28,874 bases of DNA from the NCBI GenBank assembly GCA_019912905.1, contig JAIOHO010000507.1, positions 1 through 28,874 of the forward strand. The letters are read 5' to 3'. The notes below the pieces were generated by a model. It worked only from the letters and a program-made list of their open reading frames with translations. It had not been told where the DNA came from and ran no database searches. This DNA is from Anaerolineae bacterium. GTDB lineage: Bacteria; Chloroflexota; Anaerolineae; Aggregatilineales; Phototrophicaceae. Positions 6,527-6,989 of this stretch are shown one piece after another. The position numbers were made by a program, and so were the translations under genes. Every line of letters begins with the position of its first letter. The stretch's first letter is position 1.

Positions 6527-6551
6527 AACGCAAAGGCGCAAAGACGCAAAG
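6527..6551 (+). repeat. Left inverted repeat, three 8-nt units
   Basis: A-ACGCAAAG-GCGCAAAG-ACGCAAAG read directly from the + strand. Confidence 0.95.
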
Positions 6552-6567
6552 GTAAAAAACAACTTAG

Positions 6568-6954
6568 TCATTCGTGTAATCCGTTGACTACCCGATGAAT
6601 GCCGTTCTTCACGTGCTGCTCTCCAAAATTAATCACTAATCCCAGTCTCAATCCTGTTAACCTGAGATAGGTTAAGGTTTGCACCTCAAAAATCCTGTGA
6701 TATTCGGTAGTGGCTTTACACTCTACAATCACCATATTGTTTACAATCAAATCGGCTCTTAGAGGAGACACCAGATCAACATTTTTGTATTTGATGGGAA
6801 CCAGCTTTTGTCGCTCAATTCGGAAATCGGCTTCTGTTAGCTCCCAGACAAGTGCTTCTTCGTAGACACTTTCCAGCAGGCCGGGACCGCCTAATGTGCG
6901 ATGGACTTCTATCGCTGCTCGGATAATCTGGTAGCTGAGCGTATTTTCGTCCAT
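6568..6954 (-). CDS. GxxExxY protein (PD-(D/E)xK nuclease-like), 128 aa
   Basis: GLLESVY signature, RADLIV...VIVECK (D...ExK) and QTLTYLRLTGLRLGLVINFG. Start moved to ATG 6954 (MDENTLS); the ORF-track extension overlaps DUF58 and the repeat. Confidence 0.93.
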   Translation of the reverse strand: MDENTLSYQIIRAAIEVHRTLGGPGLLESVYEEALVWELTEADFRIERQKLVPIKYKNVDLVSPLRADLIVNNMVIVECKATTEYHRIFEVQTLTYLRLTGLRLGLVINFGEQHVKNGIHRVVNGLHE

Positions 6955-6989
6955 CAAAATCTTTGCGTCTCTGCGCCTTTGCGTTTCAT
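6954..6989 (-). CDS. Putative 11-aa leader/coupling mini-ORF MKRKGAETQRF spanning the right inverted repeat
   Basis: ATG begins 6 nt after the DUF58 TAA. The TGA shares its A with the GxxExxY ATG (TGATG). Translation is not demonstrated. Confidence 0.35.
   Translation of the reverse strand: MKRKGAETQRF
6961..6985 (-). repeat. Right inverted repeat, three 8-nt units
   Basis: + strand CTTTGCGTCTCTGCGCCTTTGCGTT. Its reverse complement A-ACGCAAAG-GCGCAGAG-ACGCAAAG has one mismatch to the left copy. Confidence 0.95.

Follow-up and report, generated by a model that had tools for sequence, protein, structure and literature searches.

A small gene of low GC content, enclosed by two inverted copies of a tandem octamer array, occupies the spacer between the DUF58 and BatA genes in the DNA analysed here, a stretch of 28,874 nt that we refer to as the window. 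What such a unit is doing inside a MoxR-DUF58-BatA operon, and whether its arms matter as DNA or as RNA, is the question that this locus raises. The earlier note on the window offered two answers: a minimal element lacking a transposase, whose nuclease would recognise the arrays and mobilise the gene, or an intervening sequence that would be looped out of, or excised from, the operon mRNA.

The unit and its gene

The unit measures 459 bp. Upstream of it, in the sense of the operon, lies the DUF58 gene (6996..7898, minus strand; PF01882, 1.5e-34), orthologues of which were found in 40 of 41 relatives, and downstream of it lies the gene of the BatA/vWA membrane protein (4599..6515, minus strand; PF07584 and PF13519). 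A Pfam search placed the MoxR gene of the same operon at 7912-8934, also on the minus strand. The Pfam assignments of both neighbours thus bear out the location described in the earlier note. The two arms, at 6527-6551 and 6961-6985, form an inverted repeat of 25 nt with 409 nt between them, and 24 of the 25 positions (96%) are complementary, which agrees with the single mismatch reported before. Each arm comprises three octamer units (NCGCARAG) and has the outer end AACGC (or GCGTT). The upstream arm (6961..6985), read on the minus strand, consists of AACGCAAAG, GCGCAGAG and ACGCAAAG, and its outer end AACGC adjoins DUF58; the downstream arm (6527..6551), read on the plus strand, consists of AACGCAAAG, GCGCAAAG and ACGCAAAG, and its outer end adjoins BatA. 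Both arms recur in the orthologous loci described below. In the window the triple-octamer array, (NCGCAAAG)3, occurs at these two positions only, and none was expected according to 100 dinucleotide-preserving shuffles. As had been noticed before, the interior is poorer in GC (0.40-0.45, about 0.44) than the surroundings (0.62-0.68), and no Pfam family of transposases or integrases was detected among the window ORFs of at least 180 aa.

The gene between the arms (6568..6954, minus strand; ATG at 6952-6954, TGA at 6568-6570) encodes a GxxExxY protein of 128 aa and fills most of the interior. Only 6 nt (6955..6960, minus strand) separate the upstream arm from the start codon, a reading of the sequence that would place a ribosome-binding site of this gene, if there is one, in or at the arm. 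An A/T-rich spacer of 16 nt (6552..6567, minus strand) leads from the stop codon to the downstream arm. Outside the unit, the 10 nt (6986..6995, minus strand) between the stop codon of DUF58 (6996-6998) and the upstream arm are, by comparison with other copies of the repeat, part of a purine-rich outer extension (AAAGA..) that also stands beside those copies. On the opposite side, the 11-nt outer spacer (6516..6526, minus strand) carries the motif GAGG immediately past the downstream arm, 7 nt ahead of the BatA ATG (6513-6515), and this motif is the probable ribosome-binding site of BatA. A dinucleotide TC, a putative target duplication, is found beside both arms in the window; it was not seen at other copies of the repeat. 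A mini-ORF had also been read through the upstream arm (6954-6989, minus strand; ATG..TGATG, with its TGA overlapping the ATG of the GxxExxY gene); it is probably a coincidence, since three orthologous loci (L017, L018 and L022) lack its ATG.

The assignment of the product to a PD-(D/E)xK-like family held. The protein scored 135.5 bits against TIGR04256 (cut-off 35) and 123.8 bits against PF13366 (cut-off 22), the latter being its only Pfam match. The residues of the GxxExxY motif (G25, E28 and Y31), as well as those of the D...ExK motif (D68, E78 and K80), were invariant among 38 homologues, in agreement with the intact catalytic motif pointed out previously. An AF2 model reached a pLDDT of 92.7, and the nearest solved folds retrieved by Foldseek were Cas4 (SSO0001 and Pcal_0546; 4ic1 and 4r5q), lambda exonuclease, RecE and the nuclease domains of AdnAB. 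These matches were weak (TM about 0.5, E about 1e-3), and a sequence search of solved structures with the GxxExxY protein gave no match. Taken together, the predicted model and the fold matches support a minimal DNA-nuclease core and nothing more. The gene is under purifying selection, as it showed a dN of 0.12-0.25 against its orthologues with dS saturated; the flanking genes of the operon had a dN/dS of 0.12-0.25.

PF13366/GxxExxY is a very large family: the homologue search yielded at least 8000 scored candidates, each with E <= 0.001. A survey gives its function as 'unknown' (PMC3424549). In the literature that names GxxExxY or PF13366 we found nothing on repeats, in that on STRR heptamers nothing relevant, and we found no publication on a class of cassettes combining a nuclease gene with arms of tandem units.

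The operon contains one more gene of uneven distribution. A TIR-domain gene (PF13676, 9e-12) at 3739-4680 of the window, on the minus strand, separates the operon's two vWA genes; in the orthologous operons of L017, L018, L022, L063 and L068, BatA is followed by the second vWA gene with no space for it, and in L063 a called gene of 198 aa, Pfam-negative, lies between the two. The TIR gene of the window may be a further inserted passenger.

Descent and turnover at the DUF58/BatA junction

The idea of a recent insertion at this locus was not sustained. Six metagenome or MAG loci (L017, L018, L022, L063, L067 and L068) show the order DUF58-arm-GxxExxY-arm-BatA. The closest homologues of the protein, with identities of 83, 80, 76, 74, 73 and 71%, are all encoded between DUF58 and BatA; their loci carry both arms with the same octamer, and the GC content of their genes is 0.41-0.47. 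Beyond the arms, the intergenic sequence could not be aligned among the orthologous junction loci. Of the 80 loci with a protein like that of the window, counting one genome per species, 15 sit at this junction. In the protein tree the window joins L017 and L018 (SH-aLRT 96), and this group is nested in a clade of 20 rows, all of them Chloroflexota (support 87), that corresponds to the junction set; the nearest named records belong to Phototrophicaceae and Aggregatilineales. The orthologous junction loci and the single protein clade therefore indicate an old, vertically inherited unit and not a recent insertion. The cassette entered the DUF58/BatA spacer in the ancestor of a large Chloroflexota (Aggregatilineales-like) clade and has passed down by vertical descent ever since, its gene and arms intact, apart from occasional loss or replacement of its cargo.

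A comparison of 40 relatives with a DUF58 orthologue documented these events. The empty junctions that the earlier note had asked for exist in five relatives, where DUF58 and BatA are tightly spaced (one ATGA overlap, and spacers of 6, 21, 22 and 54 nt). Within the genus the expectation failed: the 75-nt junction of G001 contains no gene and a degenerate remnant of two units, and since deeper relatives carry the cassette, this short junction represents a secondary loss and not a pre-insertion site. In G002, another genome of the genus, the left arm (L024, G002:C12) is followed by a low-GC ORF of 206 aa, Pfam-negative, and there is no right arm; this is a replacement of the cargo at the same site. 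Further relatives carry the gene with arms (G011, 72% identity), the gene reversed between arms of the CACAGAG type (G022, 69%), a GxxExxY gene of another subfamily with other arms (G039, 46%), or an armless GxxExxY gene of host-like GC (G009, 39%). In other relatives the junction contains either a HAD hydrolase gene with a bare hairpin of a different unit behind it or a bare heptamer array. We had considered whether the arms kept their polarity when the gene was flipped in G022; the comparison is uninformative, because an inverted repeat is identical on both strands. The DNA contigs of the study from which the window derives show no empty or inverted variant, since they are shallow and broken inside the cassette.

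Such long retention might suggest that the gene was domesticated, that is, that the GxxExxY protein has a host function tied to the MoxR-DUF58-BatA (Bat-type) system and that the arms are regulatory. At least 21 loci indeed keep the gene at the DUF58/BatA junction under purifying selection, and the armless gene of G009, with its host-like GC, lies at the very same junction. However, two of the four genomes of the genus (G001 and G002) lack the gene there and have intact operons, the same protein clade is also found at unrelated loci, and the GC of the gene is still 0.12-0.18 below that of the host. With these data we regard domestication as very unlikely.

Dispersal of the octamer repeat and its association with the gene

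The genome to which the window belongs is a MAG of 1184 contigs, 88% complete. The scan for (NCGCARAG)3 that had been proposed did find dispersed intergenic copies, 13 octamer arrays at about 8 loci, most of them gene-less. A single GxxExxY gene was found. This count is a lower bound because this MAG has an assembly gap, between the starts of contigs C1027 and C1071, exactly where a second cassette site lies, upstream of a gene with a conserved start; that site is filled in G001 and G002. Cassettes may thus be under-counted in fragmented assemblies.

The gene-less copies take several forms. Contig C17 carries a bare 66-nt hairpin of octamer arms with a 20-nt loop, common to the genome of the window, G002 and G003 and eroded in G001; its arms have drifted apart, with the GCAAAG cores kept. 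A degenerate hairpin lies between mraZ and rsmH on contig C181, a junction that is hairpin-free in G001 and G002. At C995:6915-7223 (L166) the arms enclose 263 nt, mostly non-coding, and the whole unit is missing at the orthologous site of G001; its interior shows an 18-nt internal direct repeat and a possible hydrophobic ORF of 60 aa. Contigs C1050 and C345 hold single arrays. A more elaborate arrangement was found at C944:1780-4565 (L169), where three forward CGCARAG arrays stand each immediately ahead of the ATG of an accessory gene and one reverse array closes the block. The accessory genes encode proteins of 74 and 310 aa with no known function, a methyltransferase and a low-GC TIR-domain protein, and the block is followed by a HerA-like (HAS-barrel/DUF87) gene. 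The arrangement resembles a cassette with several cargo genes, in surroundings reminiscent of a defence locus. The array counts in the genus were 13 in the genome of the window, 0 in G001, 17 in G002 and 33 in G003. Copies of the repeat have therefore been gained and lost between species of one genus, and the arms exist also as gene-less hairpins and as single arrays.

Other unit families share these spacers. At C1050:3230-3330 the single arm of the CGCAAAG type adjoins an array of the heptamer AGTCTCC; among the orthologous sites (L183-L187), that of G002 contains an additional, unannotated gene (about 1 kb, opposite strand), which by eye looks like an alpha/beta hydrolase, and that of G003 has a longer heptamer array. 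The intergenic spacers are mosaics of several repeat families. Separately, both genes of the TIGR02436 four-helix-bundle family (the 23S-IVS protein family) in this genome, at C162:2687-3010 (minus strand; L015) and C455:7824-8144 (plus strand; L016), have inverted arrays of tandem heptamers on either side, of the CTAAAAG type in one case and of the CAGTC/CTGAAAA type in the other, a design like that of the GxxExxY cassette.

Across phyla the gene and the octamer go together. We compared 79 loci encoding proteins with 60-73% identity to that of the window, from at least 10 phyla, including Chloroflexota, Planctomycetota, Acidobacteriota, Thermodesulfobacteriota, Pseudomonadota and Cloacimonadota. 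A bracketing inverted repeat was present in 89% of them, above the 99th percentile of shifted controls, and nearly all of the bracketed loci have the CGCAAAG unit with the outer end (T)TAACGCAAAG. The commonest layout is arm-gene-arm, with 27 clear cases; at about 15 of 80 loci the gene lies between complete hairpins instead of inside one. GxxExxY genes of 30-50% identity have other units (CACAGAG, CACGGAG, CACGAAG, CGCCAAG, CGCGAAT, CACGGAT and CGCAGAT), most of which end in AAC. In line with this, protein identity was correlated with arm similarity (Mantel r = 0.375, p = 0.001), and the likeness of arms was 81% within a cassette compared with 70.5% between cassettes, a difference that none of 5000 permutations reached (p < 0.0002). 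In at least 10 phyla, then, this nuclease subfamily is accompanied by these arms at loci unrelated to one another, and other subfamilies have other units, which supports the part of the earlier note that treated gene and arms as one unit. In the protein tree the phyla are intermingled (L126, for instance, groups with L134, support 98), which implies horizontal transfer. Among loci with co-directional flanking genes, 24 have the gene in the orientation of its neighbours and 6 in the opposite one; this bias fits a promoterless, read-through-dependent cassette, which probably lacks its own promoter and appears to be transcribed by read-through from the operon of the host.

The association is looser when it is viewed from the side of the repeat. 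Among 201 sampled genomes of the class, at least three arrays were present in 7 of the 7 that carry a gene with 60% identity or more and in 21 of the 194 that do not, counts that include some of the gene's own flanks. Ten genomes of the sample contain 10-59 near-perfect CGCARAG arrays and no gene like that of the window (E <= 1e-30), the three array-rich genomes that were examined have only other GxxExxY subfamilies with other arms, and G003 (81% complete) has its 33 arrays and no GxxExxY match. These genomes imply that the arrays can exist without the cognate gene, at least within the assembled part. The reading of the earlier note was thereby supported in part, the repeat being specific to the subfamily, and the idea that the nuclease mobilises the arrays was weakened, the arrays being mostly gene-less and abundant in some genomes without the cognate gene. 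Two findings would have counted against the earlier note, vertical inheritance of the gene at this locus without repeats and a REP-like repeat with no association to GxxExxY genes; what we found lies in between, as the repeat is REP-like and dispersed, yet associated with the gene.

The same observations can be read in another way, namely that hairpins of the REP type exist independently in the host, as terminators, mRNA stabilisers or protein-binding sites, and that the GxxExxY genes are guests, inserting by preference into these hairpins or persisting best within them, whose protein does not act on the repeat. The predominance of gene-less arrays and the many array-rich genomes without a cognate gene agree with this, as do the arrays ahead of unrelated genes in the accessory island of C944 and the sharing of intergenic spacers by several unrelated unit families. 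Nevertheless, local hairpins predict arms that are specific to the host and not to the gene, and the guest explanation leaves unaccounted for both the pairing of one subfamily with one unit in at least 10 phyla whose repeat repertoires differ and the units specific to each subfamily. We consider it unlikely.

A nuclease and its proposed cognate hairpin, at the DNA or the RNA level

The alternative at the RNA level was that the arms pair in the polycistronic transcript and that RNase III cuts the resulting 25-bp stem, as in the 23S intervening sequences, so that DUF58 and BatA expression would be separated or tuned and the mRNA of the passenger released. Prediction for the sense RNA gave a pairing probability of 0.99 for the arms and a duplex of -45 kcal/mol, and a stem of 25 bp is long enough to be a substrate of RNase III. 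The position of the cassette inside the operon and in its orientation, the greater likeness of the arms within than between cassettes, and the four-helix-bundle genes of the 23S-IVS family, which have the same design with heptamer arms in this genome, are also in keeping with it. Selection on RNA pairing should leave its mark on the mismatches, but across 54 bracket cassettes we counted, on the sense strand, 84 arm mismatches of the G:U type, 79 of the A:C type and 127 others, with transversions making up 44%. There is thus no excess of G:U over A:C as a sign of RNA-level selection in these 54 cassettes, and such a pattern is what an absence of strand-specific selection for pairing would produce. 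Constraint on the arms is strongest in the unit sequence, the GCAAAG cores, where it is periodic, and not in pairing; in line with this, old hairpins hold their cores while their arms diverge. In addition, the gene lies between complete hairpins, and not in the loop of one, at the 15 or so loci mentioned above, and the stretch was absent from three very small metatranscriptome runs from the study that yielded the window. When RNase III processes a 23S intervening sequence, the cut RNA ends are not joined again; in the operon this would split the transcript, and splicing is therefore not expected even if the stem is cut. Looping-out or excision of the passenger at the RNA level, as envisaged earlier, found no support beyond the predicted stem, and we judge an RNA-level role improbable.

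We favour instead, with a probability of about 0.5, the reading in which the 459-bp unit is a copy of a self-contained cassette made of a PD-(D/E)xK (Cas4-like) nuclease and its cognate hairpin, by analogy with RAYT/REP and Ssn/NTS. The anatomy of the unit, its vertical descent, the turnover at the junction, the gene-repeat association, the mismatch test, the horizontal spread, the gene-less copies with their gain and loss in the genus, the fold, the precedent of Ssn and the co-orientation with co-directional neighbours all speak for it. The mechanism that we infer is as follows. The GxxExxY nuclease would recognise its own octamer arrays and would act most likely on the DNA, on hairpins or single strands, as Ssn does on NTS. 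Breaks at the arrays would be repaired via recombination between arms, which could copy, keep or exchange whatever sits between two of them and could also leave gene-less hairpins behind. The predicted 25-bp stem in the mRNA of the host operon would then be a side effect. Several observations weigh against this reading as well: array-rich genomes without the cognate gene exist, common descent of the unit is enough to make protein and arms co-vary, which is no proof of recognition, no movement was seen among near-identical strains, the structural matches are weak, and long vertical retention under purifying selection fits a role beneficial to the host too.

Among published systems, Ssn/NTS and REP/RAYT come nearest. 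Genes of the Ssn proteins, which are GIY-YIG nucleases, are flanked by the NTS/SRM repeat that they cut, variants of repeat and protein go together, and the association correctly predicted site-specific cleavage (PMC11893778). The cassette resembles this system in having a small nuclease gene with a dispersed, hairpin-forming repeat on both sides, in many phyla. The two differ in the nuclease, GIY-YIG in Ssn and PD-(D/E)xK (PF13366 only) here, and in the repeat, since NTS is a single dyad-symmetric repeat whereas 3-4 octamers in tandem make up an arm of the cassette, whose gene usually lies inside one long hairpin. An ssn homologue is present in 81% of SRM-rich genomes (PMC11893778), whereas many of our array-rich genomes lack the cognate gene.

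REP/REPIN-RAYT systems likewise comprise a single-copy gene flanked by inverted intergenic palindromic repeats that otherwise occur gene-less, and their doublets can fold into larger hairpins between co-directional and convergent genes (PMC3733652). REPs carry GTAG or CGTC tags (PMC3733652), in contrast to the tandem octamers of the cassette, the arms of which end in AACGC or GCGTT. RAYT is an HUH tyrosine transposase; none is present here, where the gene matches PF13366 only. Moreover, copy numbers here are in the tens and not in the hundreds.

Three further systems were compared. An integron gene cassette with an attC site was discarded, because no integrase was detected among the window ORFs of at least 180 aa and the gene separates the two halves of the inverted repeat, which do not form one attC; some outer ends of the arms resemble RYYYAAC/GTTRRRY. 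ORF-bearing intervening sequences of 23S rRNA are found in Leptospira and Coxiella, and their ORF belongs to PF05635. They share with the cassette a small ORF in the loop of a long inverted-repeat stem, transcribed within the host RNA, and genes of the PF05635 family (TIGR02436) with the same design exist in the genome of the window. The cassette, in contrast, lies in the spacer of an mRNA operon between protein genes, encodes another ORF family and has arm mismatches with no sign of RNA-level selection. Free-standing homing endonuclease genes, such as seg and mob of T4-like phages, spread by cutting the empty allele. The likeness here is a small nuclease gene in a spacer of conserved gene order, present or absent among relatives; genes of the seg/mob type, however, have neither flanking inverted repeat arrays nor gene-less derivatives, and we know of no cleavage site of the empty-allele type for the cassette.

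The traits of a class of hairpin-armed small genes were all found: a PF13366 gene between arms of tandem units, gene-less copies, and empty sites in relatives. The pairing of a gene with flanking repeats is already known from Ssn/NTS and REP/RAYT; what differs here is the protein family, the arms of tandem units and the layout with the gene in the loop. More tentatively, and as a possibility that we hold with some doubt, GxxExxY proteins in general may be sequence-specific nucleases, each for its own tandem unit of 7-9 nt, and together with their arms they may constitute a third very large nuclease-repeat class after RAYT/REP and Ssn/NTS. The link between subfamily and unit offers a direct and cheap test, in which a protein is confronted with its own and with foreign units, and the precedent of Ssn indicates that a gene-repeat association can lead to nucleases of practical value as tools, which cut single strands at specific sites.

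The locus itself provides a dated example of one cassette kept at one operon junction throughout a whole clade, and the loss, cargo replacement and inversion seen among relatives form a natural series on the persistence of such elements. If the general proposal were true, the class would fill operon spacers of many phyla with hairpins and swap the cargo between their arms, and a common design would be shared by the nuclease-repeat class and the ORF-bearing intervening sequences of 23S rRNA. The finding would account for some of the spacers, built of repeats, at which metagenome assemblies break. Furthermore, PF13366 would gain a function, and the unexplained tandem heptamer and octamer arrays would gain an origin.
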